12,502 bases of DNA from the IMG/VR virus record IMGVR_UViG_2541047430_000021. One strand, given 5' to 3'. The DNA is from a virus (Duplodnaviria; Heunggongvirae; Uroviricota; Caudoviricetes). Both the position numbers and the translations under genes were made by a program. Position 1 is the stretch's first letter, and each line of letters begins with the position of its first letter. Below the pieces are notes generated by a model. The model worked only from the letters and a program-made list of their open reading frames with translations. It did not search any database and had not been told where the DNA came from. Shown one piece after another: positions 2,064 to 12,470 of this stretch.

Positions 2064-2133
2064 TTAAGTGCGGGTGCGTTGAGGATGCCTGATTCATCAG
2101 AGGTGGCGAGGGATTTCTCCCTCGCCGGGTCTC

Positions 2134-2289
2134 TTACTCCTCAGGTTCGTAAGCTGTGAAGACAGCGACCTCCGTCTGGCCGGTTCGGATTCGTACCTCG
2201 CAGAGGTCTTTCCTCGTTACCAGTGCCGTCACTATGACGGTAATACAGATGACGATCAGGGCGATTAACATCGCCTTTTGCTGCTTCAT
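2134..2289 (-). CDS. hok: Hok-family type I toxin (51 aa membrane peptide)
   Basis: Translation MKQQKAMLIALIVICITVIVTALVTRKDLCEVRIRTGQTEVAVFTAYEPEE is near-identical to HokD/RelF as I recall it. AGGAG SD 9 nt upstream of ATG at 2289-2287. An in-frame upstream ATG at 2346 with its own GAGG SD could be a mok-like start. Confidence 0.9.
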   Translation of the reverse strand: MKQQKAMLIALIVICITVIVTALVTRKDLCEVRIRTGQTEVAVFTAYEPEE

Positions 2290-2338
2290 AGCCTGCTTCT
2301 CCTTGCCTTTCGGCGCGTAAGAGGCTAACCTACATGTG

Positions 2339-2410
2339 TCTAGCATGAAATTGGCCTCAGATTAATGTTAGGCGTCTTGCAGGACGCGTAATGTTAACTG
2401 GGGCTTTTCT
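2339..2410 (+). ncRNA. putative Sok-like antisense RNA (hypothesis)
   Basis: Plus-strand region antisense to the SD and ATG at 2346-2362. Candidate promoter TTGCCT(2304-2309)-17 nt-TAACCT(2327-2332). Hairpins at 2372-2387 (GCGTC-TTGCAG-GACGC) and CCUCAG...CUGGGG, followed by a U-rich tail CUUUUCUCU. Boundaries are inferred, not measured. Confidence 0.3.
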
Positions 2411-2464
2411 CTGTCTGCCTTACGGTGGCATGCCCGAGGCAGACAGCCTCAAGCACCCGCAGCA

Positions 2465-4601: not shown

Positions 4602-5342
4602 TCACATACCCTGACGTCCAACGTTTGACCGCCAGCTCTCCCAGTTAAAATTCACCCAACGACCACCATTCATGGTCATACGGTCCATCACCCGATCTCC
4701 GAGGAGTGTGCTCATCGCTGCGTGATTCAGGTTCGTCAGCATTCCGACACTACGCATCGAAGCCGTTCTGCGGTCGACTATCTGGTTCAGCGTGACCTGC
4801 TCGTTGCGCGTATCCCGCTGCATGCCAATTTCATCAAGGACCAGAAGGTCAACTCCACAAAGCTCCTGTAAAAATTTTTCCCCGGACTGGCCGTTGTCGT
4901 AGCCGTCATGCAACACGCTCATGACATCGGACACGGTGACGATAATCACGCTTCTCCCCTTCGCCATCAGCCGATTGCCAATCGCTGCTGCCAGGTGATT
5001 TTTACCGGTACCAGGTTTACCGCTGAACACGAAGTTTGTACATCCGGTCATCAATTCATCGGCAATGGATTTCGCCTGGCTCAGAGCATGGCGCTGACCG
5101 TCGTTCTGCACCCGGTAGTTCCCGAATGAGCACTTCCTGTGAAGCGGCTGGATGCCCGCACGGTTCAGGATTTTTTCAACCCGCACCTGATGATTCAGGC
5201 GGTTAATCTCCTCGCTGCGTTTTCGTCCTTCAGCAAGTTGCCATTCCCGCCACTCCTCCACCGTCCGGTACGGTGGAACCGCCCCCTGTGGTGCAAGTCT
5301 GCGAATACGTTCAAGAACCCCAACTGCCGCAATGTTTTTCAT
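4602..5342 (-). CDS. DnaC/IstB-like AAA+ helicase loader (phage replication protein, YdaV-like)
   Basis: Walker A GKPGTGKNHLAAA and Walker B LLVLDEIG. ATG at 5342-5340 with GGGGGTGA SD. The 246-aa length matches Rac YdaV (from memory). Confidence 0.9.
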   Translation of the reverse strand: MKNIAAVGVLERIRRLAPQGAVPPYRTVEEWREWQLAEGRKRSEEINRLNHQVRVEKILNRAGIQPLHRKCSFGNYRVQNDGQRHALSQAKSIADELMTGCTNFVFSGKPGTGKNHLAAAIGNRLMAKGRSVIIVTVSDVMSVLHDGYDNGQSGEKFLQELCGVDLLVLDEIGMQRDTRNEQVTLNQIVDRRTASMRSVGMLTNLNHAAMSTLLGDRVMDRMTMNGGRWVNFNWESWRSNVGRQGM

Positions 5343-5348
5343 GACACG

Positions 5349-6311
5349 TCACCCCCTGAATCCCGGCGGTATTTCAGTGTCCGGTTCAGAAATGTGATTC
5401 ACGCAACGCTGCGCGGGCGAACGCCCCAGGCGGATAACCAGTTCATCCCATTTTTCCCGGAGTTTTGCCGGACTCATGATGTTTTTTACCCAGAACGAAT
5501 CCCGCTGGAGACGCCCAAACATTTCACAAATTTGTCTGTGAGTTCTGCCATCCAGCATCCGCATTGTCCGCACGTCATTGGCCCATGCAGTCCAGTTGGG
5601 TTCTTTCGGTCTCGTGATCTCGCCATCATCGCTGGCCGCCTGCTCGTAAAGACTCACGATTCGTCCCCAGATCCACTGTGCGCACACCAAATCTTCCTGA
5701 CTTCCCCACTGGCGTTTTTTCGCACTGAACACAACCGCGTCAGGGTGTCGGGTTAAAAAATTCTGTTCAGCCGTCTGCGGGTCCGGTTGCGAAGCGTCCG
5801 GACAAGAAGATCTTTTATCTGACGGATCAGGTTTTAATACTGACGGATCGGGGTCAATCATCGCCCCCCTAATCGGCAGTTTGTTATCAACAGTTGATCC
5901 ATCAAAATTTGACGGGTCAACCGTTGAGGGGGCAATATTTGACGGGTCAACTGTTAACGGGTCATTTTTTGCCGGGCTAATTTTTCTTTTCGGTTTATAT
6001 GACTCACGCGCCGCCGCAGCAGCTGCTTCGAGTTTTTCCACATTAAGCCGATAGATATTGCTTACATTACGCCCACCGACCTTACGCTCTTCCTTCGTCA
6101 GCCAGCCCTCTTTCGCCAGTTCTGCAATAGCCGATTTCACTGTGGATTCACTTCTTGCACCGATCTGACGCCGGATAGTTTCAATGGCAGGCCATGACAC
6201 GCCCTCGTCATTGCTGTAGTCTGCAAGACGGGCCATAACCGCCACCCTGGATAAGATCATGCCGGTGAAGGCGCACCCTTCCCAGACAAGACCATGAAGC
6301 TTGCTGCTCAT
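5349..6311 (-). CDS. replication initiator (O-like/YdaU-like) with N-terminal winged-helix domain
   Basis: N-terminus LHGLVWEGCAFTGMILSRVAVMARLADYSNDEGVSWPAIETIRRQIG...AIAELAKEGWL is an HTH typical of phage replication initiators. Lies immediately upstream of the DnaC-like gene. ATG at 6311; alternative GTG at 6326. Confidence 0.8.
   Translation of the reverse strand: MSSKLHGLVWEGCAFTGMILSRVAVMARLADYSNDEGVSWPAIETIRRQIGARSESTVKSAIAELAKEGWLTKEERKVGGRNVSNIYRLNVEKLEAAAAAARESYKPKRKISPAKNDPLTVDPSNIAPSTVDPSNFDGSTVDNKLPIRGAMIDPDPSVLKPDPSDKRSSCPDASQPDPQTAEQNFLTRHPDAVVFSAKKRQWGSQEDLVCAQWIWGRIVSLYEQAASDDGEITRPKEPNWTAWANDVRTMRMLDGRTHRQICEMFGRLQRDSFWVKNIMSPAKLREKWDELVIRLGRSPAQRCVNHISEPDTEIPPGFRG
5820..5965. 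repeat. iteron-like direct repeats (putative prophage origin) inside the initiator gene
   Basis: TGACGGATCAG (5820-5830), TGACGGATCGG (5841-5851), TGACGGGTCAA (5910-5920), TGACGGGTCAA (5940-5950), AACGGGTCAT (5956-5965); an AT-rich stretch follows at 5962-6000. They encode the repeated peptide DPLTVDPSNIAPSTVDPSNFDGSTVD. Confidence 0.55.
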
Positions 6312-6333: not shown

Positions 6334-6759
6334 TTAGTGCATCACCACAGCATTCCCTGCCGGGCCGCCGCGATTCATCTGGTCATACAAAACAACCGCT
6401 GACGCAACAAAATCATCGACATCCTTCACCAGCCGATCCCTCCGTTCGACGATCTCACGGTAATATTCAGAACTGTGGCTGCGCATACGGGCCACCAGCA
6501 AAGGCGGCATCGCCTTTTCGATCGCCGGTAACAGAGCCTGCATTTTTTCAACAGCATCAGGGGTGTCTTTATCCAGCCAACGGAAAATTTTCTGGGTATT
6601 ACGGGCCAGGGCTTCCGGATGGCTGTCGTCATACAGTTCCGGGAACGTCATTCCCAGCTCGAAATACGCTTTGGTAATTTTCGCAGCCGGTACTTTTTCG
6701 CCGTCCGGATGCGCCCAGACATTCATCGCCATGCGGATGTGTTCATGCTTGATTTTCAT
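6334..6759 (-). CDS. YdaT-like (CII-like) prophage regulator
   Basis: Begins MKIKHEHI..., as I recall Rac YdaT does; 141 aa. ATG at 6759 overlaps the upstream stop (ATGA); GGAG SD. Confidence 0.75.
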   Translation of the reverse strand: MKIKHEHIRMAMNVWAHPDGEKVPAAKITKAYFELGMTFPELYDDSHPEALARNTQKIFRWLDKDTPDAVEKMQALLPAIEKAMPPLLVARMRSHSSEYYREIVERRDRLVKDVDDFVASAVVLYDQMNRGGPAGNAVVMH

Positions 6760-7058
6760 GAATCAACTCCATCAGATAAGCATGCACTACAATCACCTTC
6801 AGCATGAACTACATGTGTTTGCCCCAAACGAATGCCGCTCGCATACTCAGGCCAAATAAGCTCCCAATCATGGGGTCGTAGCTCCGCCCTACTTACTTGG
6901 CCTTCCGTCGCAGATTCGATCATAAGGGCGCGGGTTGGAGATATAGCTGTTCGTCCAGACGCCATTTGCGATAAGTAAGATGGCGATACACCAAGTCTGG
7001 CCGCGAATTTCTTAGCATCACCAACCCTTAATGATTTAATAAACTCTTTTAATGTCAT
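6756..7058 (-). CDS. Cro-like HTH protein (YdaS-like), first gene of the early-right operon
   Basis: Translation MTLKEFIKSLRVGDAKKFAARLGVSPSYLSQMASGRTAIS... is a Cro/CI-type HTH. GAGGAAGG SD before ATG at 7058. Divergent from the regulator gene. Confidence 0.8.
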   Translation of the reverse strand: MTLKEFIKSLRVGDAKKFAARLGVSPSYLSQMASGRTAISPTRALMIESATEGQVSRAELRPHDWELIWPEYASGIRLGQTHVVHAEGDCSACLSDGVDS

Positions 7059-7064
7059 ACCTTC

Positions 7065-7150
7065 CTCGGTTTAGTGTTTTTTTGCGAGTTTAGTGTTTAA
7101 TAAACCATTAAGTCAAGTATTTGCTTGTTTAGTGATTACTAAAGATAATT
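7065..7150. promoter_or_regulatory. OR-like divergent promoter/operator region
   Basis: Minus-strand promoter: -35 TTGACT (plus 7111-7116), -10 TAAACT (about 7087-7092). Plus-strand promoter: -35 TTGCTT (7121-7126), 17 nt, -10 GATAAT (7144-7149). GTTTAGTG motifs at 7069, 7088 and 7127; near-palindromes GTTTAATAAAC (7094-7104) and TTTAGTGATTACTAAA (7128-7143). Confidence 0.5.
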
Positions 7151-7155
7151 ACCAC

Positions 7156-7527
7156 ATGCAAAAAAAAGAAATTCGCCGTTTACGTCTCAAGGAGTGGTTT
7201 AAAGATAAAACTCTGCCACCCAAAGAGAAGAGCTACCTATCTCAACTAATGAGTGGGAGAGCCTCGTTTGGAGAAAAGGCTGCCAGAAGAATAGAGCAAA
7301 CATACGGGATGCCGGAAGGGTATCTGGATGCGGAATACGCAGAACAACCGGGGGGTTCTCCACCACATGCAGGGTTAACGTCTAATCAACTGGAATTATT
7401 GCAGATTTTTTCAGCCTTCCCTGAGGATGAGCAACGCCAGATAATCAGCGAGTTAAAGCAGAAAAAAGAATCAATGGAAGATCTCATAGCGAGATGGATT
7501 GCGGCGCAAAAATGCCGCCGCGCCTGA
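7156..7527 (+). CDS. CI-position HTH regulator (PaaR2-like), probably leaderless
   Basis: ATG at 7156 lies ~7 nt after the GATAAT -10 and has no SD. HTH-like segment KSYLSQLMSGRASFGEKAARRIEQTYGMPEGYLD. The ORF-track start at 7093 is a GTG inside the operator region. Confidence 0.65.
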   Translation: MQKKEIRRLRLKEWFKDKTLPPKEKSYLSQLMSGRASFGEKAARRIEQTYGMPEGYLDAEYAEQPGGSPPHAGLTSNQLELLQIFSAFPEDEQRQIISELKQKKESMEDLIARWIAAQKCRRA

Positions 7528-7547
7528 GTTATAAAACCGGAGGAAAC

Positions 7548-7739
7548 ATGAATAGAGCCCTTTCACCAATGGTTTCTGAATTTGAAACCATTGAACAAGA
7601 AAACAGTTACAACGAATGGCTGCGTGCGAAAGTAGCAACGAGCCTTGCAGATCCGCGCCCAGCAATTCCCCATGACGAAGTTGAGCGCAGAATGGCAGAA
7701 CGCTTTGCTAAGATGCGCAAGGAACGGAGCAAGCAGTAA
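7548..7739 (+). CDS. paaA2: ParE-associated antitoxin (PaaA2-like, 63 aa)
   Basis: GGAGG SD 5 nt before ATG 7548; 63-aa product directly upstream of the ParE toxin gene (1-nt gap). Length and arrangement match my recollection of the three-component paaR2-paaA2-parE2 system; the symbol is assigned from memory. Confidence 0.7.
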   Translation: MNRALSPMVSEFETIEQENSYNEWLRAKVATSLADPRPAIPHDEVERRMAERFAKMRKERSKQ

Positions 7740-7740
7740 A

Positions 7741-8019
7741 ATGTTACCCGTGTTATGGCTTGAAAGCGCAGATACCGACCTAGATGATATAACTAGTTAT
7801 ATTGCTCGTTTCGACATAGATGCGGCTGAACGCTTATGGCAGCGATTAAGGGGTTGTGTGCTGCCGTTATCCGAACATCCGTATTTATACCCACCAAGCG
7901 ACAGAGTACCTGGCTTGCGTGAGATTGTAGCCCACCCTAACTATATAATTCTATACCGCGTAACAACATCAAGCGTTGAAGTAGTAAACGTGATCCACGC
8001 AAGACGCCAGTTTCCCTAA
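7741..8019 (+). CDS. parE2: ParE/RelE-superfamily toxin (92 aa)
   Basis: Translation MLPVLWLESADTDLDDITSYIARFDIDAAERLWQRLRGCVLPLSEHPYLYPPSDRVPGLREIVAHPNYIILYRVTTSSVEVVNVIHARRQFP shows the ParE/RelE pattern (PG-RE-V--P-YIILYRV----V-V--V-HARR). Confidence 0.85.
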   Translation: MLPVLWLESADTDLDDITSYIARFDIDAAERLWQRLRGCVLPLSEHPYLYPPSDRVPGLREIVAHPNYIILYRVTTSSVEVVNVIHARRQFP

Positions 8020-8961: not shown

Positions 8962-9317
8962 TAGCTAACCAACGAAGCTAAGGTTGGTAATTAAGGAGTT
9001 CTCCACGGGTGAGGTGGAGTGCGTGCGCCGGACACGGGTGAGCATACGGCACTGACAGTTTACTGAAAGGATATTTCCCTGAAAAGTCAGACCATAACGC
9101 GAAAGCGCACGGCGAGGTAGCTGGTTCATAGATAGCCTGTCGTTAAATTTTCGTCGACCGTGCGCTTCCGGTTGTGGCAATCCGCGAAATGGCGCGGCGG
9201 TAAGTATGGAGGGGTTATTCCTTCCCCCGTTGAGGACACCGGGTTGTCAGGTTGACCATACGCTTAAGTGACAACCCCGCTGCAACGCCCTCTGTTATCA
9301 ATTTTCTGGTGACGTTT

Positions 9318-9360
9318 GGCGGTATCAGTTTTACTCCGTGACTGCTCTGCCGCCCTTTTT
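9318..9360 (+). terminator. terminator-like hairpin plus T5 run (tL-like), weak
   Basis: GGCGG (9318-9322) ... CCGCC (9350-9354) with inner CAG/CTG pairing, followed by TTTTT (9356-9360). The loop is long, so efficiency is uncertain. Confidence 0.3.
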
Positions 9361-9529: not shown

Positions 9530-9718
9530 ATGGAAACGTTATTACCAAACGTTAATACGTCTGAAGGTTGTTTTGAAATTGGTGTCACTATCAGTAACCC
9601 TGTATTTACTGAAGATGCCATTAACAAGAGAAAACACGAACGGGAGCTATTAAATAAAATATGCATTCTTTCAATGCTGGCCCGTTTACGTCCGATACAA
9701 AAAGGATGCTGGCAATGA
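9530..9718 (+). CDS. hypothetical early-left protein (62 aa)
   Basis: GAGGA SD 7 nt before ATG 9530; stop TGA 9716-9718 overlaps the next start (ATGA). Confidence 0.5.
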   Translation: METLLPNVNTSEGCFEIGVTISNPVFTEDAINKRKHERELLNKICILSMLARLRPIQKGCWQ

Positions 9719-9906
9719 ATACAGCATTTGCACTTGTTCTGACAGTTTTTCTTGTTTCCGGAGAGCCAGTTGATATTGCAGTCAGTGTTCACAGGACAAT
9801 GCAGGAGTGTGTGACTGCAGCAACCGAACAGAAAATTCCCGGTAACTGTTACCCGGTCGATAAAGTTATTCACCAGGATAATAACGAAATCCCGGCAGGT
9901 CTTTAA
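9715..9906 (+). CDS. hypothetical small protein (63 aa) with signal-peptide-like N-terminus
   Basis: ATG 9715 with AAGGA SD 8 nt upstream; MNTAFALVLTVFLVSGEPVD... has a hydrophobic N-terminus and two Cys in the mature part. Confidence 0.5.
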   Translation: MNTAFALVLTVFLVSGEPVDIAVSVHRTMQECVTAATEQKIPGNCYPVDKVIHQDNNEIPAGL

Positions 9907-9998: not shown

Positions 9999-12470
9999 AT
10001 GAGTAAAGTCTTTATTTGCGCCGCCATTCCGGACGAACAGGCAATAAAGGAAGAAGGTGCCGTCGCTGTAGCCACTGCCATTGAAGCCGGTGATGAACGT
10101 CGCGCCCGCGCAAAATTTCACTGGCAATTCCTGGAACATTATCCGGCTGCTCAGGACTGCGCTTATAAATTTCTTGTTTGCGAGGATAAACCCGGTATAC
10201 CCCGCCCTGCCCTCGATTCCTGGGATGCTGAATATATGCAGGAAAACCGCTGGGATGAGGCGTCTGCTTCCTTTGTCCCGGTCGAGACTGAATCCGATCC
10301 GATGAACGTCACTTTTGACAACCTGGCCCCTGAAGTACAGAACGCTGTCATGGTTAAGTTCGACACATGTGAAAACATCACTGTTGATATGGTGATTAGC
10401 GCACAGGAATTGTTGCAGGAAGACATGGCAACATTCGACGGCCATATCGTTGAAGCGTTGATGAAAATGCCAGAAGTTAACGCTATGTATCCGGAGCTTA
10501 AGCTGCATGCCATCGGGTGGGTTAAGCATAAATGTAAGCCTGGTGCCAAATGGCCCGAAATTCAGGCAGAGATGCGCATCTGGAAAAAACGTCGCGAAGG
10601 TGAACGCAAGGAAGCCGGAAAATACACGTCTGTTGTTGATCTCGCCCGCGCCAGAGCCAATCAACAGCACACTGAAAATTCAACAGGAAAAATCAACCCG
10701 GTCATTGCTGCCATTCATCGCGAATACAAGCAGACATGGAAAACACTGGATGACGAACTGGCCTACGCTCTCTGGCCTGGTGATGTGGATGCCGGAAACA
10801 TTGACGGCAGCATCCATCGCTGGGCAAAAAATGAAGTTATCGACAACGGCCGCGAAGACTGGAAGCGTATCTCGGCATCAATGCGCAAACAGCCTGATGC
10901 CCTTCGCTACGACCGCCAGACTATTTTTGGCCTTGTCCGTGAACGTCCGATCGACATTCACAAAGACCCTGTGGCACTGAACAAATACATTACTGAATAC
11001 CTGACTACAAAGGGCGTGTTTGAAGATGAAGGAACAAATCAGAGCGCAACTGACACTCTCTCGTCGCCAGTACCAGAAACTGATGCAGTGGAAACGGCAA
11101 TTCCGGACAACGAAAAAACCGAATGCAAAGTGGAAGTCGAACCATCTGTAGAGCGTGAGGGGCCGTTCTACTTCCTCTTCACCGACAAGGATGGCGAAAA
11201 ATACGGTCGCGCAAACAAACTTTCTGGTCTGGATAAGGCGCTGGCTGCCGGGGCTACTGAAATCACAAAAGAAGAATATTTTGCCCGAAAAAATGGCACA
11301 TACACAGGCTTACCGCAAAATGCAAATACCGCACAAAATTCTGAACAACCAGAACCGGTAAAAGTTACCGCTGACGAAGTAAAGAAAATTATGCAGGCAG
11401 CCAATATCAGCCAGCCTGACGCCGAGGAACTGCTTGCAGTATCACGTGGTGAATTTGTTGAAGGGATTAGCGACCCGAATGATCCGAAATGGGTTAAGGG
11501 GATCCAGACCCGCGATTCTGTGAACCAGAACCAGCAAGAAACGGAACAGAACGACCAGAAAGCGGAACAAAACAGCCCAAATACGCAACAAAACGAGCCA
11601 GAAACGAAACAACCTGAACCAGTAGTGCAACAGGAACCGGAAAAGATCTGCACCGCCTGCGGTCAGAGCGGTGGCGGCAACTGCCCTGATTGTGGTGCGG
11701 TGATGGGTGACGCAACATACCAGGAAATATTCGATGGAGAGAATCAGCCTGAAGTTCAGGAAAATGATCCGGAGGAAATGGAAGGTACTGCACATCAGCA
11801 CAAGGAGAACACTGGCGGCAATCAGCATCATGCCAGCGATAGTGAAACTGGCGAGGCGTCAGATCCCTTAATTAAGGCGAACGGTCATCATAATCTCACA
11901 TCCACCAGCAGAGCGGGGATTCATCTGATGATCGATCTTGAAACCATGGGAAAAAATCCCGATGCCCCGATTATCTCAATAGGTGCAATATTTTTCGATC
12001 CGCAAACCGGAGATATGGGACCGGAATTTAGTAAGACTATCGATCTGGATACTGCTGGCGGAGTCATTGATCGGGACACCATGAAATGGTGGCTTAAACA
12101 ATCACGCGAAGCGCAATCTGCCATTATGACCGATGAAATCCCGTTAGATGATGCACTGTTACAATTGCGGGAATTTATCGACGAAAACTCCGGTGAATTT
12201 TTTGTTCATGTCTGGGGAAATGGAGCCAACTTCGACAACACGATTTTGCGCCGTTCATACGAACGGCAGGGGAGCCCCTGCCCGTGGCGTTACTACAACG
12301 ATCGCGATGTACGCACAATCGTTGAGCTGGGGAAAGCCATAGACTTCGATGCCAGAACGGCTATTCCATTCGAAGGTGAGCGCCATAATGCACTTGATGA
12401 CGCCCGTTACCAGGCAAAATACGTTTCAGCTATCTGGCAAAAACTGATCCCGAGTCAGGCTGATTTTTAA
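9999..12470 (+). CDS. prophage exonuclease (RecE position) with C-terminal DEDDh/DnaQ-like 3'-5' exonuclease domain
   Basis: 823-aa ORF with GAGG SD. C-terminus has the three DEDDh motifs: IDLETMG, VWGNGANFDNTIL, HNALDDARYQAKY. Internal CTACGQSGGGNCPDCG zinc-ribbon-like motif and a Q/E/N-rich low-complexity linker. Confidence 0.85.
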   Translation: MSKVFICAAIPDEQAIKEEGAVAVATAIEAGDERRARAKFHWQFLEHYPAAQDCAYKFLVCEDKPGIPRPALDSWDAEYMQENRWDEASASFVPVETESDPMNVTFDNLAPEVQNAVMVKFDTCENITVDMVISAQELLQEDMATFDGHIVEALMKMPEVNAMYPELKLHAIGWVKHKCKPGAKWPEIQAEMRIWKKRREGERKEAGKYTSVVDLARARANQQHTENSTGKINPVIAAIHREYKQTWKTLDDELAYALWPGDVDAGNIDGSIHRWAKNEVIDNGREDWKRISASMRKQPDALRYDRQTIFGLVRERPIDIHKDPVALNKYITEYLTTKGVFEDEGTNQSATDTLSSPVPETDAVETAIPDNEKTECKVEVEPSVEREGPFYFLFTDKDGEKYGRANKLSGLDKALAAGATEITKEEYFARKNGTYTGLPQNANTAQNSEQPEPVKVTADEVKKIMQAANISQPDAEELLAVSRGEFVEGISDPNDPKWVKGIQTRDSVNQNQQETEQNDQKAEQNSPNTQQNEPETKQPEPVVQQEPEKICTACGQSGGGNCPDCGAVMGDATYQEIFDGENQPEVQENDPEEMEGTAHQHKENTGGNQHHASDSETGEASDPLIKANGHHNLTSTSRAGIHLMIDLETMGKNPDAPIISIGAIFFDPQTGDMGPEFSKTIDLDTAGGVIDRDTMKWWLKQSREAQSAIMTDEIPLDDALLQLREFIDENSGEFFVHVWGNGANFDNTILRRSYERQGSPCPWRYYNDRDVRTIVELGKAIDFDARTAIPFEGERHNALDDARYQAKYVSAIWQKLIPSQADF

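Follow-up and report, generated by a model that had tools for sequence, protein, structure and literature searches.

In bacteriophage lambda, the iterons and an AT-rich tract lie in the middle of the initiator gene O (PMC7466680). The Stx phages 933W and P27 likewise have a lambda-type origin inside O, with six iterons, and a variable number of iterons lengthens the linker peptide of the O protein (PMC7466680). For other Stx-phage replication modules, those with YdaT-like and HTH_36 proteins, a catalogue exists (types Eru8 and Eru11) that includes no origin analysis (PMC8951638). An active origin, oriJ, has been reported for the Rac prophage (PMC3945230), and the replication module of the Shigella phages SfII, SfIV, and SfV has been noted (PMC3851460). 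Here, we describe a replication module on a 12,502-nucleotide stretch of Caudoviricetes DNA (IMG/VR record IMGVR_UViG_2541047430_000021), which we call the window. Comparison of its sequence with relatives suggests that positions 5805 to 5980 are probably the replication origin of a lambdoid prophage, located inside the linker-coding part of the prophage's own initiator gene.

The replication operon and its initiator protein

The DNA of the initiator gene is 100% identical to that of an Escherichia coli O157:H7 lambdoid prophage by sequence comparison, and megablast found DNA related to the replication module in 2,232 of 5,426 complete E. coli genomes. The minus strand carries, in order, a YdaS-family gene, a YdaT/CII-like gene, the initiator gene, and the loader gene, followed by DUF1627, DUF977, DUF551, hokD/sok, DUF968, rusA, and Q (Table 1). 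The loader gene (4602 to 5342) has further matches to Pfam IstB_IS21 and Bac_DnaA and to phrog_50. A promoter-like site, recognized only by its match to the consensus, is present at 7116 to 7087 on the minus strand. The two genes at 6334 to 7058 form the upstream part of this rightward-type operon, and, by analogy with lambda, transcription from the cro-side promoter would pass through the candidate origin. Because the O157:H7 prophage copy is annotated with IS elements and truncated genes, the candidate origin may no longer fire in this particular prophage.

The initiator matches phrog_391 ("replication initiation O-like") over residues 1 to 320 (E = 6.9e-115). From the N to the C terminus, it comprises a winged-helix HTH_36 domain, a linker predicted to be disordered, a helical C-domain, and a tail resembling that of DnaT. 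The N-domain matches Pfam HTH_36 (PF13730) with 27.8 bits, the cutoff for this family being 25 bits, and residues 1 to 104 adopt an H-H-H-H-beta-beta-H fold in the AlphaFold2 model. Foldseek listed dimeric MarR/PadR-type winged helices and the DnaD N-domain as the best matches to the N-domain, all of them generic and none at E ≤ 0.001, and a PDB sequence search with the initiator matched the DnaT-like tail only and gave no N-domain match. The N-domain (aa 1 to 104) is presumed to be the iteron-binding module. Residues 110 to 176, for which the repeats and the conserved block described below code, have a pLDDT of <50 and are predicted by AlphaFold2 to be disordered. The last 21 amino acids (SEPDTEIPPGFRG, residues 300 to 320) match those of host DnaT (PDB 2ru8, 6aep, and 9zbt) and also align to positions 159 to 179 of the NCBIfam DnaT profile; together, the C-domain and this tail presumably recruit the loader or the helicase. 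No lambda P-type loader was found as the partner, the gene downstream encoding a DnaC/IstB-type AAA+ ATPase. Because the initiator has no match to PF04492 (Phage_rep_O) at E ≤ 0.01, a profile to which lambda O itself scores 123 bits, it is a functional analogue of lambda O from outside the lambda O family.

Table 1. Features of the replication module, in window coordinates
Feature	Position	Strand	Basis or remark
Cro-like YdaS-family gene, upstream part of the operon	6756-7058	minus	Pfam, PHROG, annotation
YdaT/CII-like gene, upstream part of the operon	6334-6759	minus	Pfam, PHROG, annotation
Initiator gene, 320 aa plus stop	5349-6311	minus	ORF and translation; same CDS in RefSeq
N-terminal winged-helix coding region, aa 1-104	6000-6311	minus	AF2 pLDDT 80-93
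AT tract named first as part of the origin; Lys-rich peptide KPKRKISPAKN	5960-6000	minus	Relatives have a different, non-AT-rich sequence
Iteron array, about 8-9 12-bp dyad sites, TTGACCC(C/G)TCAA or its reverse complement	5846-5980	minus	15-bp register
Two direct GATCCGTCAG(T/A)(A/T)(T/A)AA boxes, 5832-5849 and 5808-5828	5808-5849	minus	Cross-family conservation
Module junction	5804-5816	minus	Megablast matches H40-H46 cover only query 3-468, which is window 5351-5816
C-domain coding region	5349-5803	minus	C-domain from about residue 178
DnaC-like AAA+ helicase-loader gene, directly downstream in the same operon	4602-5342	minus	NCBIfam PRK12377 E = 9e-151, DnaC E = 2e-92

A phased array of dyad sites in the linker-coding sequence

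When up to one mismatch is allowed, the motif TGACGGRTCA has eight matches in the 12.5-kb window, and six of these fall within 145 bp, at 5820 to 5964 (exact copies at 5820, 5910, and 5940; one-mismatch copies at 5841, 5895, and 5955). The number expected by chance in the whole window is 1.43, and none of 200 shuffles reached eight. A first-pass annotation of this DNA had pointed to a cluster of this motif within the initiator coding sequence, encoding a repetitive peptide. With six of the eight window matches at 5820 to 5964 against the 1.43 expected window-wide, the cluster is real; the repeats are in frame within the minus-strand ORF at 5349 to 6311, and the peptide is indeed repetitive (NDPLT VDPSN IAPST VDPSN FDGST VDNKL ... 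DPDPSVLKPDPSD). The same annotation described the spacing as irregular, which proved wrong, as both Tandem Repeats Finder and a repeat search gave a 15-bp period over 5887 to 5976. This period equals five codons, and a superperiod of 30 bp is present over the same interval.

The unit of the array is a 12-bp dyad, TTGACSSGTCAA, in which the arms TTGA....TCAA are inverted repeats, and copies in the reverse-complement orientation also occur. Perfect copies lie at 5909 to 5920 and 5939 to 5950, and degenerate units are found at 5969 to 5980, 5955 to 5964, 5924 to 5935, 5894 to 5905, and 5879 to 5890. Comparison with close relatives added two units, at 5861 to 5872 and 5846 to 5857, which follow after an 18-bp step. 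The array thereby occupies approximately codons 111 to 155, between the N-domain (residues 1 to 104) and the C-domain (from about residue 178). Of 80 close relatives, 54 have an intact TTGACCCCTCAA as their third unit; the window allele has one unit mutated, from GAC to GCC, compared with most relatives. The motif matches at 5820 and 5841 are not part of this array but fall in two GATCCGTCAG boxes, 21 bp apart.

A conserved A/T-rich block with GATC sites beside the array

The two GATCCGTCAG boxes, about two helical turns apart, form a block just downstream of the repeats in the sense of transcription (5805 to 5850). Each box contains one GATC (5846 and 5825), and an additional AGATCT is present at 5809. 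The ~70 bp that follow the repeats hardly vary across genera ranging from Providencia through Escherichia to Rahnella, and neither GATC site is ever lost. Across 78 genes, the block is nearly invariant even at synonymous sites, as illustrated by the codons for D155 (GAT in 57/57), S157 (TCA in 47/47), V158 (GTA in 51/52), D162 (GAT in 52/52), and S164 (TCA in 48/48). At the protein level, the family segment that follows the pentapeptide units reads F-D/H-P-S-E-S-G-G-D-P-S-V-x-S-K-x-D-P-S-D-K-K.

The least stable 40-mer of the gene, at 5801 to 5840, ranks in the 2nd percentile of all 40-bp segments of the window. The conserved block at 5805 to 5850 as such is only moderately unstable (66% A+T over 41 bp) and is much weaker in this respect than the intergenic AT tracts of the window. 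The densest GATC cluster of the window is also found here, at 5808 to 5849. Considered in this window alone, the GATC enrichment (P of about 5e-4 per 100 bp, with ~125 such segments) is marginal after correction, and the argument from GATC sites rests on their conservation across species rather than on single-window enrichment. The sequence features of the block at 5808 to 5849 make it a candidate for the unwinding or loading region. The AT-rich stretch that had been named as part of the origin, at about 5960 to 6000, is on the wrong side of the repeats; it is only mildly unstable, at about the 5th percentile of 40-bp segments, and it is unconserved. Because the GATCCGTCAG boxes stay the same in clades whose iterons differ, the factor that binds them may be something other than the initiator.

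The conservation of this block also allows a broader proposal, which we advance only tentatively. The 45- to 70-bp block (5805 to 5872 here; consensus TTTGACCCGTCAGAATCTGGnGGGGATCCGTCAGTAAAnTCAAAACAnGATCCATCAGATAAAAAACC) shows no synonymous variation over the range from Providencia to Escherichia, irrespective of iteron type and C-domain. It is possible that this block is a distinct origin-core element of all HTH_36-type prophage initiators, a Dam/SeqA-gated site of unwinding and helicase loading that would time when prophages fire and would double as a junction for module exchange.

Repeat type follows the N-domain of the initiator

Among related initiators, the type of repeat tracks the clade of the N-domain and not the type of the C-domain. 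Members of clade N1 (MSSKLHG..., which includes the window gene) have TTGASSSSYYAA sites, combined with either a window-type or a PF09524 C-domain, while members of clade N2 (SfII/SfIV/733R5-like, MS[TV]KL...) have CTGAYNCRTCA sites, again with either C-domain. Both the N1 and the N2 motifs are absent outside the linker in 76 of 78 genes, the exceptions involving only the N2-type motif in one group (mean of 0.06 per gene). Initiators in which an unrelated N-domain is joined to the window's C-domain or to a PPGFRG tail carry distinct repeats of their own at the corresponding place in the gene; the L004-type initiators, for example, contain four to five copies of a 23-bp unit, CATCnGnnCATTTTGACCnGATG. 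As a positive control, the same repeat search recovered the four annotated iterons of lambda O (Phage_rep_O). Past the module junction (Table 1), the C-domain DNA is common to initiators with unrelated N-domains and repeats, as seen in a protein comparison of L004 to L006. Because DNA homology to the L004 type starts at ~5804 to 5816, just past the last box, these sequence comparisons indicate that the N-domain, the repeats, and the block are one exchangeable module.

Such a location also accommodates a cis-acting element that is bound by the initiator or by a host protein without being the origin proper, such as an operator or roadblock for autoregulation, which would limit transcription into the loader gene, or a recombination junction at which N- and C-modules are swapped. 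The invariant block is situated exactly at the module junction (~5804 to 5816), the GATCCGTCAG boxes remain constant across iteron types as would a shared recombination or host-factor site, and constraint at the DNA level implies a cis function while leaving the kind of function unspecified. However, a recombination linker fails to explain a phased array of 3 to 10 dyad sites that tracks the N-domain clade. It also fails to explain why unrelated initiators have repeats of their own at the same position, as is the case for the proven iterons of lambda. Moreover, the lambda origin itself lies at the domain junction of O, so the roles of origin and junction are not exclusive. We consider an element of this kind, in place of an origin, to be unlikely, although the invariant block taken alone may have such a role.

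Codon usage indicates selection on the DNA of the linker

Homologous genes were fetched from 80 different Enterobacterales species. Their products share a layout consisting of the winged-helix N-domain, 3 to 10 x-D/E-x-S-x pentapeptide units, the conserved segment, and one of several unrelated C-domains. The Ser codon was TCA in 86% of 503 D/E-x-S units (78 genes), compared with 15% of the Ser codons elsewhere in the same genes. For linker Ser codons overall, TCA accounted for 47% and TCT for 32%, compared with 15% and 8%, respectively, elsewhere. In a set of 57 genes that are <90% identical in the N-domain, the normalized codon entropy of conserved residues averaged 0.83 over 69 N-domain columns but 0.21 over 30 linker columns (Mann-Whitney p = 1.8e-13). 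The same codons are thus used across lineages whose N-domains are synonymously saturated, which makes concerted evolution of a peptide repeat an inadequate explanation. The clade of the window gene contains the 12-mer in both orientations, TTGACCCCyCAA (encoding xDPPx) and TTGAGGGGTyAA (encoding xEGSx), and because the two orientations encode different peptides, it is the DNA site and not the peptide that is conserved. Taken from these alignments, the indication is that DNA rather than peptide is under selection in the linker. An overlapping reading frame was rejected as the source of the synonymous constraint: the ORF list contains no plus-strand ORF across 5757 to 5880, and stop codons interrupt the other sense frames of the block.

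Constraint of this type could in principle act on the mRNA or on an antisense RNA, for example, through a structured element that serves translation of the C-domain or loader or that affects RNA stability. The mRNA strand of 5795 to 5985 does fold far better than shuffled sequences (z = -5.3), and the equivalent 150-nt segments of eight relatives give z-scores of -1.8 to -7.6. Arrays of dyad sites, however, are inevitably self-complementary. The predicted folds of nine family members are unrelated to one another, merely pairing neighboring palindromic units with no common architecture, and the near-invariant block gives no covariation support. An Rfam search of the window matched only sok (2284 to 2458) and DicF (9304 to 9355), with no match in the initiator gene, and no promoter-like site from which an antisense RNA could start was found in 5800 to 6000. 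An RNA-level explanation is therefore very improbable. The least probable reading, a peptide-only feature in which replication slippage produced a disordered linker of xDPSx pentapeptides that is kept for its flexibility or length, would suit a peptide that is repetitive and predicted to be disordered and whose unit number varies among relatives in five-codon steps, as slippage would give, but it is already strongly disfavored by a codon choice that is near-fixed across distant species while the rest of the gene is synonymously saturated and by opposite-orientation units that encode VEGST and IDPPT yet keep the DNA motif.

A model for initiation at the candidate origin

The proposal of a lambda-like origin within the initiator gene, made in the first-pass annotation, is supported by the codon position of the repeats, the freezing of linker codons, the presence of both site orientations, and the covariation of the sites with the N-domain. 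In the model that we favor, dimers of the initiator N-domain would bind the dyad sites, with the TTGACCCGTCAA units as the presumed targets of the N-domain (aa 1 to 110). A spacing of 15 bp corresponds to ~1.4 helical turns, which would place neighboring dimers on roughly opposite faces of the DNA and would result in a compact nucleoprotein array resembling the lambda O-some. At the A/T-rich block (5805 to 5850), the duplex would then be destabilized and host DnaB would be delivered by the DnaC-like loader encoded by the adjacent gene, the loader being recruited through the C-domain and DnaT-like tail of the initiator. Through the two GATC sites, which are conserved without exception, firing might respond to Dam methylation or to SeqA. 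The disordered linker, for its part, would tolerate a coding sequence that is dictated by the DNA element.

No promoter-like or terminator-like site was found in 5800 to 6000. DnaA boxes are not enriched, with 22 matches to TTWTNCACA (up to one mismatch) in the window compared with 24 expected, and the one exact box, at 6034 to 6042, lies in freely varying coding sequence. We therefore rejected an iteron-plasmid-type origin with DnaA boxes, as there are no boxes beside the iterons and no enrichment. We also set aside, as evidence for autonomous replication, a 16-kb circular "plasmid" (NZ_CP148542.1). It contains nothing beyond a lambdoid early-to-lysis region that includes this module, the initiator gene has a frameshift in a C-run, and the record may be an assembly product.

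Significance of the arrangement

Our literature search on iterons or origins of this family, oriJ, Eru-type Stx modules, and HTH_36 found catalogues and no mapping or description of an origin. The arrangement as such is already known from the lambda origin within O and its Stx variants; here, it occurs in an HTH_36 initiator family for which we found no origin description. Unusual details are the 12-bp sites at 15-bp phasing, their occurrence in both orientations, and the invariant GATC-bearing block. The N-domain family extends to the Shigella serotype-converting phages SfII and SfIV and to phages of Klebsiella, Yersinia, and Citrobacter, and some Stx phages have it as well (PMC8951638). A map of the candidate origin of ~180 bp defines sites to mutate, and synonymous recoding could separate DNA function from peptide function. 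Such a map could be used for constructing mini-replicons and for studying EHEC prophage induction and escape replication, incompatibility between coresident prophages, and control by Dam or SeqA. It would also provide a clean example of dual coding, in which the codons of a disordered linker are dictated by a cis-acting DNA array. Conceptually, the lambda paradigm is extended rather than changed.

Comparison with known origins

The iteron plasmids (with initiators such as RepA, pi, and RepE) have a winged-helix initiator that acts on phased direct repeats beside an unwinding element, and in the Dam/SeqA-sensitive origins oriC and P1 oriR, the unwinding region contains a cluster of GATC sites. 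The present element has no sequence relationship to any of these and, unlike them, is located inside a gene. The conservation of its two GATC sites suggests that Dam or SeqA may have a role here.

The Rac prophage has the same operon layout, ydaS-ydaT-ydaU-ydaV, with a DnaC-like YdaV and with a YdaU that ends in the same PPGFRG tail. Its ydaU gene contains, at the corresponding position, four AAGCAGATGTTCAA-type repeats that are unrelated in sequence to those of the window, and the YdaU N-domain is DUF1376 and not HTH_36. The Stx phages 933W and P27 are, like the phage described here, EHEC lambdoid prophages. They differ in that their initiators are close homologues of lambda O with lambda-like iterons, whereas this module combines YdaS/YdaT, HTH_36, and DnaC-like proteins.

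The phages of clade N2 (Shigella SfII, SfIV, and SfV, Citrobacter phiNP, Yersinia YeP1 to YeP3, and Klebsiella prophage-like phages) have N-domains that are 62 to 67% identical to that of the window initiator. They share with it 15-bp-phased repeats, TCTGAC(G/A)CGTCAAAA, followed by the same GATCCGTCAG block. Their iteron core is TGACRCGTCA, compared with TTGACCCSTCAA in the window, and their units are mostly in one orientation. Several N2 phages have other C-domains (PF09524) or are without the DnaC-like gene.

In lambda, as here, the dyad repeats are found within the initiator ORF where the N-domain gives way to the C-domain (approximately codons 117 to 145 of O for the lambda iterons and codons 116 to 155 for the repeats compared with them here). 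The polarity is also the same, proceeding from N-domain coding sequence through iterons and an A/T-rich segment to C-domain coding sequence, within an operon of the cro-cII-O-P type, and in both cases the N-domain and the repeats travel as one specificity module. The differences lie in the components. The lambda N-domain is Phage_rep_O and the one described here is HTH_36; the sites are 12 bp long at 15-bp spacing in both orientations, compared with 18 to 19 bp at 20 to 24 bp in lambda, and number about eight or nine compared with four. The partner is a DnaC-type AAA+ loader in place of lambda P with its P-mediated loading of DnaB, and the downstream block is less AT-rich than that of lambda and contains two conserved GATC boxes.

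Other features of the prophage segment

Several further features accompany the replication module in the window. The repressor-like gene and the RelB-family antitoxin and RelE/ParE-family toxin genes that follow it resemble the paaR2-paaA2-parE2 system, which has been described for a cryptic prophage of O157:H7 (work cited in PMC11014345). The position of DicF upstream of dicB identifies a Qin-like dic region in the prophage. The window also contains a tandem repeat of a 21-bp unit (GAAACAAAACGAGCCAGAAAC), present in 4.3 copies within an 823-amino-acid open reading frame (ORF); the RefSeq counterpart of this ORF is a truncated exonuclease gene.

Positions of features in the window
Feature	Position	Strand	Remarks
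hokD toxin gene and sok antisense RNA	2133-2458	-	sok, Rfam RF01794, 116.9 bits
Palindrome TGACACGTCA	5342-5351		
DnaT-like tail of the initiator	5349-5411		Residues 300-320
Third iteron unit	5924-5935		TTGCCCCCTCAA
Repressor-like, RelB-family and RelE/ParE-family genes	7156-8019	+	Divergent from cro-like gene
DicF small RNA	9304-9355	+	Rfam RF00039, 76.7 bits
dicB	about 9531-9719	+	
823-amino-acid ORF	9999-12470	+	
21-bp tandem repeat	11522-11612		

Variation in the initiator module

In the window the third iteron unit encodes Ala. Of 80 near-identical relatives from viral contigs, 54 carry an intact TTGACCCCTCAA (Asp) as the third unit; the window allele therefore has a weakened site. Unit number varies widely among relatives: L089, from Edwardsiella anguillarum, has 10 motif-A sites (1816-2060 of that record) with a duplicated 45-bp super-repeat, and in L103, from Providencia, the SVPSKPDVSESVASK array is expanded. 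These differences indicate that the iteron array is still expanding and contracting. The palindrome spanning the stop codon of the initiator and the start codon of the loader is identical to the iteron core of N2, the other N-domain clade, and may be a chance occurrence here.

The last 21 residues of the initiator (AQRCVNHISEPDTEIPPGFRG) match the extreme C-terminus of the host primosomal protein DnaT (PDB 2ru8, 6aep, and 9zbt; NCBIfam DnaT positions 159-179), and a PxGFRG ending is common to the initiator, YdaU of the Rac prophage, and many PF09524-type relatives. With its neighboring DnaC-like gene, the tailed initiator mirrors the host dnaT-dnaC operon.

The same module occurs in a circular, 15,977-bp record typed as a nonmobilizable plasmid (L170; NZ_CP148542.1). 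A frameshift within a C-run of its initiator gene raises the possibility that the record is an artefact of sequencing or assembly. The content of the record, solely a lambdoid segment running from repressor, cro, initiator, and loader to Q and lysis genes, is reminiscent of lambda-dv.
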